Under the pieces are notes generated by a model. The model worked only from the letters and a program-made list of their open reading frames with translations. It was not told the origin of the DNA and did no database searches. DNA of 64,000 nt from an uncultured Candidatus Poseidoniales archaeon (GTDB lineage Archaea > Thermoplasmatota > Poseidoniia > Poseidoniales > Thalassarchaeaceae), in assembly GCA_902601345.1 (NCBI GenBank), contig CACKMK010000002.1, forward strand, positions 43,571 to 107,570, read 5' to 3'. The translations under genes and the position numbers were made by a program. How positions within the stretch are numbered: the stretch's first letter is position 1; each line of letters starts with the position of its first letter. This document shows, piece after piece, positions 1,249-41,772 of the stretch.

Positions 1249-2751
1249 GTGAGTGCGTACGAAGAATTACTGACGAGACTGAAAGATATCGACTTAATTA
1301 GACAAATAGGGAGCCTATTGAGTTGGGATCAGGAGGTGTTGATGCCTCCGAAGGCGGCTCCTCTGAGGGCAGAGCAACTTGCTTGGATTTCGAAGACTGC
1401 ACATGAGAGGCTAACTGATGACAGAGTAGGAGAAATATTGGATGAAATTGAGTCCAATGATGATATGGATGTAATTAAATCGGCGAATATCAGGCTTGCA
1501 AGGGAGGCTTTTGACAGGGCAACGAAGTTGCCTACAGAGTTCGTTGAAGAGATGGCGAAGCATCGTTCCAAGGCTCTGATTTCTTGGACTGAGGCGAGGG
1601 AGAAGGACGATTTCTCAATTTTCCGTGATGACCTCGAAATAGCGATTAGACATGCGAGGATGAAGGCCGATTTCTTCGGATATGATGGTCTGAGATACGA
1701 TGCGCTGCTCGATCTTTACGAAAGCGGTCTAACCGTGGAAAGACTCGACCCACTGTTTTCGGGTCTTAGGGAAAATGTGACACCCCTGATCAAGGAAGTA
1801 GTGGAAAGGGACGAAGGGCCGGATTTCTCATGGGTTACAGAAAGCACATGGAGTCAGAAAGCACAGGAAGAGCTGAGCCAAAGTGTTTCTGAGGCAATAG
1901 GTTTCGACTTCGGGGCAGGAAGGAGGGATCTGTCCACTCACCCATTCTGTGGGGGGCCTAATCCCGATGATGTAAGGTGGACAACTCGCTATAGTGAAGA
2001 GGAGCCGTTCGGATCCCTGTTTGGTTCAATGCATGAAACAGGTCACGGTACGTACGAACAAGGTAGACCTAGGGATTTGGACTTCCAACCGGCAGGAAAG
2101 GCAAACGGTCTTGGGATTCACGAGAGTCAAAGTCGCCTCTGGGAGAATCAGGTAGGGAGATCCCGGGAATTTTGTGAATGGTCCATCCCGTTGTGGAGGA
2201 AGTTCTTCCCAGAAAATATGGACGGAGTCAGCGCCGAGCAACTATGGCAGGCAGTTAATTTGGTGAAGCCTGGTTTAATCAGGGTTGATGCTGATGAGGC
2301 CACATACAATCTACACATCATGATCAGGTACGAGATCGAAAAGCAACTTATTGCTGGCGAAATAGATGTAGATGATCTTCCTGATGCTTGGGACGAAATG
2401 TACCATGAATACTTGGGAATTAGAGCTCCTTCCCGTACACTGGGAGTTCTTCAGGATATTCACTGGTCAATGGGTGCAATCGGCTACTTCCCAACGTACA
2501 CTCTCGGGAATCTTTACGCTGCTCAACTGCTCGAGTCAGCCAGAAAAGATCTCCCAGAACACGATACTCAGATTAGGGAGGGGGACTTCTCACCACTACT
2601 CAATTGGATGAGGGACAATGTCCACTCGAGGGGAAGCGTGCTGGAGCCAGCGGAGCTAATCAAGGAAGCAACTGGTCAGGACCCTTCCCCTGATGCTTTC
2701 ATAAGATATCTTAGCTCAAAGGTTGAGAGGCTTTACGGAGTTAGTGCTTAG
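1249..2751 (+). CDS. M32 family metallocarboxypeptidase (carboxypeptidase Taq-like)
   Basis: 500 aa. HETGHGTYEQG is an HExxH zinc motif in the M32 context. DIHWSMGAIGYFPTYTLGNLYAAQL is the M32 signature region. Confidence 0.85.
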   Translation: MSAYEELLTRLKDIDLIRQIGSLLSWDQEVLMPPKAAPLRAEQLAWISKTAHERLTDDRVGEILDEIESNDDMDVIKSANIRLAREAFDRATKLPTEFVEEMAKHRSKALISWTEAREKDDFSIFRDDLEIAIRHARMKADFFGYDGLRYDALLDLYESGLTVERLDPLFSGLRENVTPLIKEVVERDEGPDFSWVTESTWSQKAQEELSQSVSEAIGFDFGAGRRDLSTHPFCGGPNPDDVRWTTRYSEEEPFGSLFGSMHETGHGTYEQGRPRDLDFQPAGKANGLGIHESQSRLWENQVGRSREFCEWSIPLWRKFFPENMDGVSAEQLWQAVNLVKPGLIRVDADEATYNLHIMIRYEIEKQLIAGEIDVDDLPDAWDEMYHEYLGIRAPSRTLGVLQDIHWSMGAIGYFPTYTLGNLYAAQLLESARKDLPEHDTQIREGDFSPLLNWMRDNVHSRGSVLEPAELIKEATGQDPSPDAFIRYLSSKVERLYGVSA

Positions 2752-2767
2752 AAGTGGTGAGGTGCAC

Positions 2768-3853
2768 ATGACAGTATTCAGTCTGACTGACTACTCCTCC
2801 CTGGTCAGGGAGATTGGAGGGGAGTGTGCCTTCGTTAGAGTCTCAGGGAAATTACTGGTGTCGGGCTCCAAATCAGGAGAGGTTGCCTGCTGGGATTTGG
2901 ACAACGGTAAAGAGATGTGGAGATCAAAGTTCGAGGGTCCTTGTTCTAATGCGGATTCGAATAAAGATTTCCTGTTCTTCACAGAGTCAGATAGAGTTCA
3001 TTCAATTGTGTTGTCCTCTGGAGATGAGGCTTGGTGCGTGGAACTGGAGGGTTCTAGCGATCTTGTTAGAGTTTCTTCAGAGTGCGTTTGGGTGACTTCG
3101 TCTGTTTACAACTTCGAGATTCAGGACTATTCAGAGGGTTCGGTATGGAAAATTGACTATTCAGGAAAAGTTAGGTGGAAGGGTGACACGATAGGAAGAG
3201 CCTGGTCTCTATCTGATTTTCAAGGACAAGCAATCATGGGACTAAGTAGGCCTAAGTGTGGATATGCCATTGCATCCGAAACAGGAATTGAATATCTTGA
3301 GTTGGAAGAAAATAAGCCGATAACTGCTGGATGTAAATTAGATGGAGGAGGGATAGTTTTCGGGCATAGCAATGGATCGGTAACTGAGATATATGGAGAA
3401 GTCTGCTCTACCGTCAGCGTAGGAGACTCTGCGATCCGCGCGGTGGATTGCGGGACTAGTTGGGTTGCAGGGCTCGATTCTGGAGTCGTTTCAACCGGCG
3501 AATCCCTAGGATCATGGAAAATAGAGTCTTTTGGCTCCATTGATGTAGTTTCATTCGGTCCTTCGTTGGACGATGTCGCAGGCATATGGTACTCATCTTG
3601 GGACGGTAAAGGAGGAGTTTTCCTAGTAGACTCTTCATTTGGGAGTCTGCAGCTCGAGCTCTCTCACGAATCTAGGATAGTAACCTGTTTCGCTACTGAG
3701 CATACGATTTGCTTTGGAGATATTAGCGGATGCATACATGTAATCGAGAAGGAGGTTCTCCGGCGTCGTTTCGGAAGGCTCCCAGAAGGAGATATCGAAT
3801 CTGGAAGAGAATCGGAGCTTAGAAAGAAAATACGTGCACTGCGAGGTGCCTAA
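2768..3853 (+). CDS. PQQ-like beta-propeller repeat protein
   Basis: Repeated motifs SGKLLVSGSKSGEVACWDLDNGKEMW and SGDEAWCVELEGS are typical of PQQ/WD-like propeller blades. Start moved to the internal Met (MTVFS...) to avoid a 29-nt overlap with the upstream gene. Confidence 0.45.
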   Translation: MTVFSLTDYSSLVREIGGECAFVRVSGKLLVSGSKSGEVACWDLDNGKEMWRSKFEGPCSNADSNKDFLFFTESDRVHSIVLSSGDEAWCVELEGSSDLVRVSSECVWVTSSVYNFEIQDYSEGSVWKIDYSGKVRWKGDTIGRAWSLSDFQGQAIMGLSRPKCGYAIASETGIEYLELEENKPITAGCKLDGGGIVFGHSNGSVTEIYGEVCSTVSVGDSAIRAVDCGTSWVAGLDSGVVSTGESLGSWKIESFGSIDVVSFGPSLDDVAGIWYSSWDGKGGVFLVDSSFGSLQLELSHESRIVTCFATEHTICFGDISGCIHVIEKEVLRRRFGRLPEGDIESGRESELRKKIRALRGA

Positions 3854-3889
3854 TTTACAGTGGAAAAACACCCCAAAAACCCCCTATTT

Positions 3890-4530
3890 CCAGTGAACTG
3901 CTCCATTATTGACGAAATGTTTATGTGCCACCCATAACCCTGTGTTTCTTGCCGCTCCGGGGGAGTGGTGTGAGGGCGCTTCGGCGCGACTCGCGGGCCA
4001 CAAAAACCGAGCCCCGAAACCGGGGCGGTAAAACCGAAATCCGAAAGGAAATCGGGGAATGGCTGGAGCGTCTGTGGACGCAAAGGCCGCGGCGAATAAA
4101 TCGGACGAACTGGAGGTAACGAAAGGGAGAGCGAGATAGGAGCTGAAGAGATACACATGCGTAGGGTGAAGAGAATGAACCTGGGTCATGTAGGTGGGGA
4201 ACGAGGCAGAGATAACCGGACGCAAGGAAGGGGAAGGAAACCAAGGGAAACACCGGGCAACAAGGGCGGGGAGACCCGTGGAGAAGCCAGTATCGAGACG
4301 TGAAAGGAAAAGCGGAGACGAAGTACCAGAAGCGGATGCGGCGAGTGAAAGGGAGATCTATTACGAGTCGGAAAATGACAAAGGAAGAGCATGAAGTTCC
4401 GGAGTCGTCTACCCGGGGGAACCCGGGCCTTCGGGCCCGGGGGACACCCGGACCCTGCGGAGTTAACAGGGGGGGAAGCTCCCCCATGTGCTGAACCCCC
4501 TGTTGCTCCCACCTAATATCGGCCCAGAAA
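3890..4530. ncRNA. Candidate large structured non-coding RNA (unclassified), strand undetermined
   Basis: Roughly 700 nt lie between convergent genes with no credible ORF. The only ORFs are overlapping, low-complexity P/R/S-rich frames on both strands. The plus strand is strongly purine-rich and GC-rich. Perfect hairpins: gcgc-ttcg-gcgc (3976-3987), gccccg-aaac-cggggc (4011-4026), ccga..cc-gaaa-gg..tcgg, cccgggcc-ttcg-ggcccggg (4422-4441), gggggg-aagc-tccccc (~4470-4486). UUCG and GNRA tetraloops are hallmarks of stable RNA. No RNase P (GGAAAGUCCGG / ACAGAAnCCGGCUUA) or obvious SRP signature found by eye. Confidence 0.3.
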
Positions 4531-4558
4531 TTTCCTGAAGACTAGTGGAAACTACTGC

Positions 4559-6160
4559 TTATTCCATTGGACCAGTCATATCACCAGGTCTGACCCATTC
4601 TTCGAACTGCTGCTCATTCACCAGGTCCAGTTGGATAGCACTTTGCCTTAGAGTAAGTCCCTTCTCATGGGCATTCTTAGCGATTTTAGCTGCATTGTCG
4701 TATCCGATGTGTGGATTCAGAGCGGTAACTAGCATCAATGAGTTCTCGAGGTGCTCGGCAATCTTTGCTTCGTTTGCGCTGAGCCCGAGTATGCAATTTT
4801 CAGAGAAAGATACACAGCTATCTGAAAGCAGCCTTGTGCTATGCAGGAGATTATGGATCATCAACGGCTTGAAAACGTTCAGTTCGAAGTTCCCCTGACT
4901 TCCACCGATGGAGATAGCGACGTGGTTCCCCATTACTTGGCAACAGACCATAGTCATGGCCTCAGACTGTGTTGGATTGACCTTGCCAGGCATTATACTA
5001 GAGCCTGGTTCATTCGCGGGTAGAGAGAGTTCTCCGAAACCACATCTAGGTCCGGATCCAAGCCATCTCACATCATTGGCTATCTTCATCAATGAGGCTG
5101 AAAGTGTATTCAAAGCGCCAGAAGCTGCTACGATGGCATCGTGAGCTGCTAGTTGTGCAAACTTATTCTCTGCACTGATGAAAGGTAGGCCTGTTTTTTC
5201 TGAAATCTTACCAGCGACTATCTCTGCGAAATCGGGATGAGTATTGAGGCCGGTTCCAACTGCAGTCCCTCCTAGTGCTAGTTCGTACAAATCGTTCAGA
5301 GCCGTTTGAATTCTAATCAAGTCGGCATCCAACATCGACACGTAAGCACCAAACTCCTGTCCAAGTGTTAGCGGAACGGCATCCATGAGGTGGGTTCTGC
5401 CGATTTTGACTATGTCAGAGAACTCTTCCTCCTTCTCCGCTAAAGAATGTCGAAGTTTCAGTACTGATGGAATTAGTCGATGTTGTATTTCCTCAGCTGC
5501 AGCGATGTGCATTGCGGTTGGAAACGTATCATTACTAGACTGCGCGCGGTTTACATGATCATTAGGGTGTACCGGAGATTTACTGCCCAGCTTTCCTCCG
5601 GATATCTCAATTGCCCTATTCGCAACAACCTCGTTTGCATTCATGTTCGTCTGAGTCCCAGAGCCCGTCTGCCAAATCCTGAGGGGGAAATGGGAGTCTA
5701 GAACCCCAGAAATCACCTCTTCACATGTTTCCGTGATCAGTTTTCCAATGTCATCTTCCAGTACTCCGAGCTTGACATTTGTCTCTGCTGCTGCCTGCTT
5801 TAGGATTCCGAATGCACGAATCACAGATCTAGGCATTCTATCTTCTCCTATGTCGAAGTTGATCAGAGACCTTGCTGTCTGTGCCCCATAATATCTATCA
5901 GCAGGAACTTCTATGTCCCCCATTGTATCGGTCTCAACCCTTACTTTGAGATTGGTCTTGTTCGGTTTTCGAGACTTTTTCTCTCCAGAGTTCGGCTTGT
6001 TGATAACGGCTCCAGAAAGGGAGCTTTCAATCATCTTGGAAATAGTGGCAGATCTTCCCTCTCCTCTGCCCTTACCAACCCTAGCGTCCAATCTTCTAGC
6101 AATATCCTCAGGAATACTGACTGAAATTATTCTACGATCACCGACCCGATGTTTCGCCAT
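4559..6160 (-). CDS. fumC: Class II fumarate hydratase (FumC) with in-frame N-terminal ribbon-helix-helix (CopG/NikR-like) domain
   Basis: 533 aa. [20 protein letters not shown] matches the fumarase/aspartase signature GSSxMPxKxN. [20 protein letters not shown] is FumC-like. The canonical FumC N-terminus [19 protein letters not shown] begins at residue 80 (ATG at 5923-5921). Residues 9-48 ([40 protein letters not shown]) fit an RHH fold. Next comes a Lys-rich linker, with no stop codon in between. Confidence 0.8.
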
Positions 6161-20462: not shown

Positions 20463-21506
20463 TTAGCTACCGATTCCTACTGCTTCTCGCAGGTTCAGTA
20501 CCTCGATGGGAACGTGAACGACATCCCCTGGTCCAAGGTTCTCCACGAGTGGGAGCCTCATCGTCTCGAATCCCTCTGGCATCCATGGATCCAACAGGAG
20601 ACCCTGCATGATGTTCGGAGTCCTGTTTTCTACCCTGGTCTGGACATTCAGGCTACCGTACTCGACGTCATATCCGGTGGTGATGTTCAGGCTGCTTCCA
20701 AGGAGTGCTGTGGATGGGAAGGATCCGGATGGCCTGATCTCGATCCCGATCTCGATGAAGCCATCTGGGGGTATCTCGGGAATCTCGCACATCTTCGGAG
20801 TGGCAGACCACCCGTACGGTATTGGCGGGGCAAGCCTCATTGTGGAGATGTTGTTCTCGCCGGTGTTCTCTAGTGTAATTACCATCAGGGCGTGGTCCTT
20901 GCCCTCTGGCCATGTCGTCCCTATAGAAAGGAAGAAGCTGTTCACTAGGAAGGGGCTGGCAGCCTCGTTGACAGCGACTGGGCCGAGTGCGCTGATTGCG
21001 TCCTCGAACGCCTTTGCCGCGGACGAGAGGTCGGAGTCGAGTGCCTCCTTACCCTGGTTGACCAGCGTGAGTGCGATGTCCTCTATGTCGCTGAGCTCAC
21101 CCATCTCGTTGAGGTGCCTTCCAAGGGTGTTCAGTGACCTCTCGAGTCCGTCTTTGCCCATCGATGCGACTGCGCCCTCTACGCAATCTGCTGCTGCTCC
21201 CCAGTTCCCCTCCCTGAGGTGCTGCAGGCCTAGCATTGTCAGGTCCCAGGCGTTGCGATCGCCTTCTGACATCTGCTCGAGCTCCTCGAGGGATCGCTCT
21301 AGCGATGATAGCGCCCTGTAGAGGTCCATGATCTGTCCTTCTGCCTCTTCGACCTCCTTCGATAGGTCTCTCAGCATCTTTCTGGCGCCTATAGGCCTGT
21401 TTGCCCAGATTGCGAATTGGATGTTCTCGGCCTCTTCCTCGATGTAGTCGATCCGCTTGAGAGTGGCCTCGGCCCCTCCCGTTGCGGGTGCCTTCGTCCG
21501 TGCCAT
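20463..21506 (-). CDS. Hypothetical protein, archaellum-operon associated (helical N-terminal half, beta-rich C-terminal half)
   Basis: 347 aa. No family recognised by eye. Start codon lies 2 nt from the stop of the giant surface protein gene and directly upstream of flaB, which suggests co-transcription. Confidence 0.5.
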   Translation of the reverse strand: MARTKAPATGGAEATLKRIDYIEEEAENIQFAIWANRPIGARKMLRDLSKEVEEAEGQIMDLYRALSSLERSLEELEQMSEGDRNAWDLTMLGLQHLREGNWGAAADCVEGAVASMGKDGLERSLNTLGRHLNEMGELSDIEDIALTLVNQGKEALDSDLSSAAKAFEDAISALGPVAVNEAASPFLVNSFFLSIGTTWPEGKDHALMVITLENTGENNISTMRLAPPIPYGWSATPKMCEIPEIPPDGFIEIGIEIRPSGSFPSTALLGSSLNITTGYDVEYGSLNVQTRVENRTPNIMQGLLLDPWMPEGFETMRLPLVENLGPGDVVHVPIEVLNLREAVGIGS

Positions 21507-41698: not shown

Positions 41699-41772
41699 TG
41701 GAGCACGAGCCGGGATTTGCACCCGGGTCCATGGATCTGCAGTCCATTGCATAGCTGCTCTGCCACTCGTGC
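41699..41772 (-). tRNA. tRNA-Cys (GCA), CCA encoded; atypical D- and T-loops
   Basis: Manual fold of the minus strand. Acceptor is GCACGAG/CTCGTGC (7 bp) with discriminator U and CCA. Anticodon stem ATGGA/TCCAT carries the loop CUGCAGA (U33, anticodon GCA, G37), identical to M. jannaschii tRNA-Cys. T-stem CCGGG/CCCGG has the loop UGCAAAU. D-arm is only ~3 bp and its loop has no GG. Confidence 0.65.

Follow-up and report, generated by a model that had tools for sequence, protein, structure and literature searches.

The gap between a PQQ-type gene and fumC

Within a stretch of 64,000 nucleotides (nt) of contig CACKMK010000002.1 from an uncultured Candidatus Poseidoniales archaeon, hereafter the window, we analysed a gap of 705 nt (positions 3854-4558) that lies between the stop codons of two convergent genes, a PQQ_2-type beta-propeller gene and fumC. 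An earlier reading made from the sequence alone (the sequence-only reading) had put the gap between these 3' ends at about 700 base pairs (bp) and had proposed that it holds an unclassified structured RNA. Based on conservation, covariation and synteny, we conclude that the gap is very likely the gene for a large, structured and purine-rich non-coding RNA (ncRNA), which is approximately 575 nt long here. The main features of the locus are as follows.

2723-3853, plus strand: PQQ_2-type beta-propeller gene of 376 codons
3913-3926, plus strand: putative archaeal promoter, with a cGAAA resembling a transcription factor B recognition element (BRE) at 3913-3917 and a TATA box TTTATG at 3920-3925
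3951-4526, plus strand: RNA body, predicted to start at G3951 or slightly 5' of it, with its last helix strand ending at 4525 and a likely 3' end at about 4526-4536
4559-6160, minus strand: fumC, with Pfam Lyase_1 from residue 81

The first helix of the RNA (P1) begins 97 nt 3' of the PQQ stop codon, and at the other end less than 40 nt separate the RNA from the stop codon of the convergent fumC. The G+C content of the RNA body is 59.4%, compared to 50.5% for the whole window, and purines make up 65.6% of it, with U accounting for only 67 of its 576 nt (about 12%). The most purine-skewed 500-nt stretch of the window is the RNA region itself, at 0.686 against a mean of 0.503 with a standard deviation of 0.054. 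The plus-strand purine skew and the GC richness described in the sequence-only reading were therefore confirmed, and the capped hairpins that it had listed were all located. Two of these carry a UUCG loop (GCGC-UUCG-GCGC at 3976-3987 and CCCGGGCC-UUCG-GGCCCGGG at 4422-4441) and one a GAAA loop (UCC-GAAA-GGA at 4040-4049), and further GNRA caps are found in a GUAA hairpin (4115-4120) and a GCAA hairpin (4221-4226). The remark that spacers elsewhere in the window are short was roughly right, as every other apparent spacer above 150 nt can be filled by an open reading frame (ORF) of 100-350 codons.

A scan with the fumC protein, with one genome per species, placed the window in the Poseidoniales (Marine Group II), with locus L001 being 97% identical in fumC; there were no exact matches on record for the fumC or the PQQ protein. 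Besides L001, fifteen further Poseidoniales loci were recovered through fumC and, as these were picked via a protein, the sample is unbiased with respect to the RNA. The element was present at the same place in nine of the 15 Poseidoniales genomes reached through fumC. The gap sequence is kept directly downstream of fumC in L001, L002 (cut), L004, L005, L006, L013 and L016, and an expanded form of 1.4 kb is found at fumC in L007 (Thalassarchaeaceae) and L010. No element lies between the PQQ-type gene and fumC in Poseidonia L008 and L015, where only about 20 nt separate these genes, and none was found within 6 kb of fumC in L003, L009, L011 and L012.

Using a 21-nt pattern from the first hairpin (P1), at least 120 loci were matched in a metagenome scan, and a profile search identified about 90 metagenome contigs among the matches listed as true relatives. 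Across all loci there are at least 73 full-length copies. Most of these are short forms of 536-849 nt, while the long forms have a total length of 1,224-1,256 nt and reach an internal copy of their 3' motif for the first time at 917-945 nt. On every contig that extends far enough in both directions, the element is situated between the PQQ-type gene and fumC, except in L199, in which the downstream neighbour is a peptidyl-tRNA hydrolase-like gene. The PQQ proteins diverge to 23-35% identity at loci where the ends of the RNA remain about 80% identical or better, which, judged from these sequences, argues for selection acting on the RNA itself. Each locus has one copy and the window holds no second one; together with the syntenic position, this is not what is expected of a mobile element or repeat. 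So far, the element has been seen only in Poseidoniales (Marine Group II), where its length in relatives is about 560-1,290 nt.

Covariation and architecture of the RNA

The structure was assessed by comparative analysis. RNAalifold, applied to seven protein-anchored sequences, gave 133 pairs, 48 of which showed double compensatory changes. A model of 140 pairs was then evaluated on 35 non-redundant short forms with less than 94% identity. In this set 91.2% of the cells were paired, compared to 39-47% after sliding the partners by 1-3 columns, and 76 pairs were double-changed, where the slid controls gave 27-31. The observed value was not attained by any of 500 column shuffles on any of five measures. 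Compensatory changes were thus above the controls, as is generally expected of a structured ncRNA, and one striking pair, in helix P7, was CG in 12 sequences, GC in 12, UA in 8 and UG in 3. The RNA was assigned to the plus strand because P1 and P2 hold invariant G-U pairs, which would be C-A on the opposite strand. The alignment fold reached -252.6 kcal/mol as given, against -213.3 kcal/mol for the reverse complement. The elements of the RNA in the window, all on the plus strand, are listed from 5' to 3'.

3951-3969, plus strand: P1, an 8-bp hairpin GCCGCUCC-GGG-GGAGUGGU with its triloop at 3959-3961 and two invariant G-U pairs, 100% paired
3970-3994, plus strand: P2, with a UUCG loop at 3980-3983; six of nine pairs double-changed (e.g. 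GC 23 / AU 12)
3995-3999, plus strand: P3, 5' strand GGGCC, of a long-range helix that closes nearly the whole RNA
4006-4029, plus strand: P4, with the hexaloop GAAACC, in which C4020 and C4021 pair with G3960 and G3959 of the P1 loop
4034-4055, plus strand: P5, CCGA-AA-UCC-GAAA-GGA-AA-UCGG; five of six pairs double-changed
4062-4087, plus strand: P6, with a symmetric purine-rich internal loop UGGA/AAAG and a UGUG loop; seven of eight pairs double-changed
4090-4093 with 4142-4145, plus strand: P7, enclosing G·A hairpin module 1; all four pairs covary
4110-4125, plus strand: G·A hairpin module 1, CU-GGA-G-GUAA-C-GAA-AG; loop-closing pair CG 27 / GC 7
4216-4231, plus strand: G·A hairpin module 2, CC-GGA-C-GCAA-G-GAA-GG; closing pair CG 24 / GC 5
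4266-4279, plus strand: hairpin GCGGG-GAGA-CCCGU, 99% paired; one pair GC 18 / AU 10 / UA 4
4413-4451, plus strand: conserved hairpin of the 3' domain, CCGGG...CCCGGGCC-UUCG-GGCCCGGG...CCCGG
4457-4513, plus strand: terminal 3' hairpin UGCGGAG...CUCCCACC, whose inner stem covaries throughout
4521-4525, plus strand: P3, 3' strand GGCCC, partner of 3995-3999

In the overall plan, P1 and P2 stand outside the closing helix P3 and the interior is multi-branched. P3 is 97% paired, and its changes are limited to G-C becoming G-U. The hairpin of the 3' domain is preceded by a near-invariant UCUACCCGG, and the terminal hairpin, whose outer motif UGCGGAG/CUCCCACC hardly varies, carries a near-invariant C-rich apical loop, CUCCCCCAU, at 4479-4487. 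GUGGGG at 4194-4199 was among the candidate partners considered for this loop, none of which covaries; the alignment fold instead pairs the loop segment with CCCUGC at 4453-4458, also without covariation. The internal loop of P6 reads GGAA/GGAA in relatives. The long forms retain P1, P2, a P3-type closure (the equivalent pairing GGCCCC:GGGG(C/U)C) and the motif of the terminal hairpin. Their P2 has C-G where the short forms have G-C, and in their terminal hairpin the outer motif is the same and the inner stem is different.

A kissing contact was detected between two 5' loops, in which positions 1 and 2 of the P1 triloop pair with positions 6 and 5 of the P4 hexaloop. At columns 12 and 76 of alignment A2 the pair is GC in 19 sequences, UA in 10, GU in 3 and AU in 3, that is 100% paired with four pair types, and at columns 13 and 75 it is GC in 10, GU in 11, CG in 5, AU in 3 and UA in 1 (86% paired, five pair types). 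The combinations of P1 and P4 loops seen included GGG/ACC, UCU/AGA, UUU/AAA, AGG/CUU and AGA/UUU. A rival partner for the P1 loop at columns 950-951 of the same alignment was weaker than P4. A general scan for pseudoknots outside the nested model yielded mostly clade-correlated false couplings, and P1-P4 alone stood out. The P1 loop of the long forms, CGA, could pair with an RAUUC loop; this region is invariant and so offers no covariation. A comparable contact occurs in the Alu domain of the signal recognition particle (SRP) RNA, where two 5'-proximal hairpin loops are joined by two to three tertiary pairs and the 3' end closes a long helix. As in that domain, 5' loops touch in the present RNA, whereas P1 and P4 are separated by P2 and the closing strand.

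Beyond these elements, the RNA varies in a modular way. The G·A hairpins follow the form 5'-YC-GGA-S-GNRA-S'-GAA-GG, with a symmetric purine loop, and their number ranges from 0 to 6 among homologues. The P5 unit is repeated three to five times in tandem in some relatives (L091, L193), and three to five tandem copies of the unit with the GGAA/GGAA loop were likewise found in L193 and L091. GGA triplets number 29 in 584 nt here and up to 82 in L156; they are abundant, yet lie mostly in internal loops and helices of the consensus fold. In L152 (322-1608, with the RNA on the minus strand of the locus) a stretch of 331-337 nt that includes the terminal-hairpin motif is duplicated in tandem with 92-94% identity, and L007 and L010 have the same organisation.

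The putative promoter was evaluated in 38 non-redundant copies with 45 nt upstream, with positions counted from the first base of P1. TTTA occupies positions -31 to -28 in all 38 copies, G is found at -37 in 35, A at -36, -35 and -34 in 37, 36 and 35, respectively, and TT stands immediately 5' of P1. We take the cGAAA-N2-TTTAW box to be the classical archaeal BRE/TATA arrangement. The fixed distance of the TATA box gives a predicted start at or next to G3951, and the location of the box between the PQQ stop codon and P1 argues for an independent gene over a 3' untranslated region (UTR). GAAANNTTTAW occurs only twice in the window, which is too few for calibrating a promoter consensus here. Between the TATA box and the predicted start, a CCCTGT block at 3938-3943 (-13 to -8 from P1) is kept in 26-37 of the 38 copies per position. 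This stretch is usually free of sequence constraint in archaeal promoters.

At the opposite end, a run of at least four T within 80 nt after CUCCCAMC was seen in 15 of 39 homologues, mostly no more than about 25 nt from the P3 strand. In the window P3 is followed by TTT only, and the 3' end is therefore uncertain. The candidate stop is the following.

4530-4536, plus strand: short T-run ATTTCC, with TTT at 4531-4533, a weak candidate transcription stop

Proposed function of the RNA and alternative explanations

Two further features of the window bear on what the RNA could be.

3921-4487, minus strand: ORF of 188 codons starting with ATG, a by-product of composition and not a gene
41702-41772, minus strand: tRNA gene, the only Rfam hit in the window

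Rfam 15 comprises 4,227 models, including OLE, GOLLD, ROOL, HEARO, raiA, IMES and the group II intron. At the gathering score the whole window matched only the tRNA, with nothing at the RNA locus. For positions 3700-4700, with E up to 10, the search returned only chance hits, which scored 10-19 bits where the cut-offs are 39-69, and for fifteen diverse homologues including long forms, with E up to 1, it returned one spurious hit to a long non-coding RNA. ARAGORN found no transfer RNA or transfer-messenger RNA in 3800-4600. SRP RNA and RNase P RNA are universal structured RNAs of archaea with several hundred nt. The sequence-only reading had found no match to either by eye; both were rejected here, as the archaeal models for RNase P RNA (RF00373) and SRP RNA (RF01857) matched neither the window nor the homologues, in the region not even at E up to 10. 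Marine Group II contigs carry separate RNase P RNAs of 292-306 nt that match RF00373 and separate SRP RNAs of 305-315 nt that match RF01857 (PMC5069720). The checks by Rfam, conservation and covariation that the sequence-only reading had itself proposed turned out in favour of an unclassified structured ncRNA, with the Rfam scan blank for the region, conservation strong at the syntenic position and compensatory changes abundant.

Several known systems share part of this architecture. In common with the ornate bacterial ncRNAs (OLE, GOLLD, ROOL, raiA, HEARO) the present RNA has a length above 500 nt, a covarying multi-helix fold rich in GNRA and UUCG loops, conserved nucleotides in loops and junctions, a stand-alone gene and a lineage-restricted distribution. 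It differs from them in its archaeal host and promoter, in having no Rfam similarity, in a composition of 66% purine and 12% U, and in the variable copy number of its modules and domains. With CsrB/RsmZ it shares many GGA purine repeats on hairpin units that vary in number between species. However, the GGA triplets here are mostly in G·A-paired internal loops and stems and not in apical loops, and there is a large invariant tertiary core; CsrA is a bacterial protein. Kink-turns consist of tandem sheared G·A pairs beside a 3-nt bulge (or open loop) that kinks the helix, and in Kt-7 the non-canonical stem has GGA opposite GAA flanked by C-G, a sequence that the G·A hairpins share. A kink-turn or K-loop was considered and rejected for the G·A hairpins. 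Tandem GA opposite GA is present, but, unlike in Kt-7, there is no 3-nt bulge, the internal loops are symmetric (3x3 or 4x4) and the closing pair covaries. Among the bacterial ncRNAs, OLE works as a ribonucleoprotein (RNP), and its kink-turn is needed for a protein partner (PMC9723947). By cryo-electron microscopy, GOLLD, ROOL and OLE were reported to form RNA-only homo-oligomers (PMC12286853).

An invariant tertiary core combined with variable repeated purine hairpins and duplicated domains best fits an RNA that binds something many times. Taken as a whole, the explanation that we prefer is an RNA gene whose product acts as a multivalent RNP scaffold, and it falls only a little short of being likely; the mechanism itself, multivalent protein binding by an RNP scaffold, is suggested by analogy and is somewhat more doubtful. 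The RNA would act in trans, with the invariant core (P1, P2, P3 and the 3' hairpin) as a platform for specific recognition and assembly. The G·A modules, in their 0-6 copies, and those of the GGAA/GGAA type, in up to 5, would offer recurring docking sites to a protein binding tandem G·A pairs, for which a member of the L7Ae family would be the obvious archaeal candidate, and the tandem 330-nt domains of the long forms would serve the same docking role.

A number of observations weigh against this interpretation or parts of it. The minimum free energy of the single sequence was unremarkable, with a z-score of -1.5 for the plus strand and -0.35 for the minus strand. Thus, of the hairpin-dense region described in the sequence-only reading the named hairpins stood, whereas a density beyond chance in the single sequence did not. 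With an ordinary folding energy, the sequence alone is no proof of structure, and the proof lies in the covariation. The search pattern sat in P1, so that the invariance of P1 in the metagenome set is partly by construction; P1 was also retained in the nine fumC-anchored loci, which had been chosen without the pattern. Both ends of the RNA are predictions from sequence, the start from the TATA distance and the 3' end approximately. In L013, L081, L135 and L149 the G·A modules are degenerate or unrecognisable, and because of such module-poor lineages the modules may be dispensable decoration. As the 3-nt bulge is absent and the closing pair covaries, the G·A hairpins are not kink-turns or canonical L7Ae sites. 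The scaffold idea, finally, draws its support from architecture and analogy only.

The main rival, which we consider unlikely, is an RNA-only machine, either a self-assembling ornate RNA that forms cages or bundles like GOLLD, ROOL and OLE, or a ribozyme. The large size, the many helices capped by GNRA and UUCG, the invariant nucleotides in loops and junctions and the loop-loop contact would suit such a machine, and the GNRA loops and purine-rich internal loops could make tertiary or intermolecular contacts of the tetraloop/receptor type. However, no similarity in sequence or model to the GOLLD, ROOL and OLE families was found, no candidate substrate or processing site was seen, and the copy number of domains and modules varies between close lineages, which is unusual for a catalytic core and would alter the geometry of an assembly. 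Another question is whether the RNA is new. The literature on ncRNAs of Marine Group II (Poseidoniales) turned up only Hou et al. 2016, who describe Tan1 (Thalassoarchaea ncRNA 1), an RNA of 229 nt with a 'complex secondary structure' that is highly abundant in a Red Sea metatranscriptome and has five homologues at 75-79% identity (PMC5069720). Tan1 is, like the present RNA, a structured ncRNA of Marine Group II, a likeness that is drawn by description only and not by sequence. That our RNA is Tan1 or its longer precursor, and hence not new, would agree with the abundance of Tan1 in Thalassoarchaea, i.e. Marine Group II (PMC5069720), and with the long form in the Thalassarchaeaceae genome L007. 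We regard this identity as improbable because of the difference in size, since Tan1 has 229 nt, whereas the present RNA has no fewer than 560 nt and reaches about 1,260 nt in Thalassarchaeaceae, and the five homologues of Tan1 stand against very many in the present family.

The gap could also act in cis, as a structured 3' UTR or stabiliser of the PQQ messenger RNA, or as a barrier or terminator between the convergent PQQ and fumC transcripts. The element shares its strand with the PQQ gene, to which it is tightly linked in nearly every locus with room on both sides, and fewer than 40 nt separate it from the convergent fumC. Nevertheless, we consider a role in cis very improbable, since the BRE/TATA box, which lies 3' of the PQQ stop codon, keeps the same spacing to the first helix in all 38 copies, both genes abut (about 20 nt) with the element absent in L008 and L015, the downstream neighbour is a different one in L199, and a covarying fold of about 560-1,290 nt with an invariant core far exceeds what a terminator needs. 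The long 3' UTR that the sequence-only reading had offered as an option is accordingly disfavoured by the conserved promoter upstream of P1, while its unclassified ncRNA was upheld. A protein-coding gene, in the form of the 188-codon minus-strand ORF or of a plus-strand disordered protein rich in K, E, R and G that may be frameshifted or decaying, deserves hardly any weight. Stop-free frames are indeed long on both strands, with 194 codons for the minus strand of the RNA locus and as many as 227 for the plus strand of L175, and Marine Group II archaea highly express disordered proteins (PMC5069720). Such long open frames arise because the plus strand has 12% T and stop codons need T (A on the other strand). 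Their length drops from 194 to 114, 97 or 81 codons among sequences that are 86-93% identical, indels are mostly of 1-2 nt and mostly not multiples of three, and substitutions show no three-base periodicity in any frame (chi-square p about 0.2). The minus-strand ORF matched no Pfam family. A conserved frame, indels in threes and a third-position bias were all missing, and the substitutions are instead compensatory in helices. A frameshifted gene, which the sequence-only reading had named as a possible refutation, consequently does not account for the region, and its statement that there is no credible ORF was right in that there is no gene, though not in the sense that no ORF exists.

The element most fittingly represents a new family of large, structured RNAs in archaea, set apart from Tan1 by description only; its gene layout is plain and its model of secondary structure has good support. 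Few large structured prokaryotic RNAs are known beyond ribosomal RNA, RNase P RNA and SRP RNA, and to our knowledge no ornate class of unknown function is known from archaea. In this family we probably have the first class of large ornate RNAs that is particular to Archaea, about 0.56-1.3 kb in size, with an invariant core, growing by duplication of modules and of 330-nt domains, and serving as the hub of an RNP or RNA-only assembly. Marine Group II archaea are uncultured and among the most abundant planktonic archaea, so if this holds true, the hub would operate in an archaeal group that ranks among the most numerous in ocean surface waters. A strongly conserved RNA with a putative promoter of its own would point to an unrecognised piece of Marine Group II cell biology. 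Given the covariation model and the conserved promoter, the RNA can be tested directly against available ocean metatranscriptomes and in vitro, and the series of size variants (0-6 G·A modules, one to three 330-nt domains) suits structural work and studies of modular duplication.

Flanking elements and neighbouring genes

An additional conserved element was found upstream of the promoter.

3858-3895, plus strand: inverted repeat CAGUGGAAA...UUUCCAGUG, with 9-nt arms that are 89% complementary, outside the RNA

This repeat, CAGTGGAAA-N20-TTTCCAGTG, is situated between the PQQ stop codon and the promoter of the RNA, and L004, L005 and L006 keep it with changes that partly compensate each other. 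For the upstream gene it may provide a 3'-end or terminator hairpin, or else it may be an operator or regulator site. The long-form locus L007 has a GGAAAA...TTTTCC repeat 5' of its TATA box. On the other side of the RNA, many relatives (among them L006, L091, L094, L151, L156, L175 and L180) carry a separate conserved hairpin, CAATCATTGCGGAGC-NNNN-GCTCCGC, which lies 30-60 nt past the P3 strand and before the fumC stop codon. Its counterpart in the window is a smaller AGTGG-AAA-CTACT at 4543-4555. The hairpin between the RNA and the fumC stop codon may be a bidirectional terminator.

Some matches to the P1 pattern were rejected. Three on viral contigs had no homology beyond the pattern, no hit in the 3' domain and no fumC or PQQ neighbour. 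Within the window, a copy of the pattern with one mismatch (GCTGCTTCCAAGGAGTGCTGT, 20691-20711, plus strand) lies inside a 347-codon minus-strand ORF (20463-21506), and was judged to be a chance match because the other elements of the RNA are absent there, although shuffles had predicted none.

The two neighbouring proteins also showed features of their own. The N-terminal part of the fumC protein, about 70 codons, is an extension that resembles a ribbon-helix-helix DNA-binding motif; matches to Poseidoniales loci start at residue 1, and bacterial matches only at residues 32-74 (mostly about 58-74). The PQQ propeller proteins, which are 23-35% identical, share a basic C-terminal tail of the form (K/R)LRxLR(x), ending in RKKIRALRGA in the window, and this tail is present also in the Poseidonia genomes that do not have the RNA.

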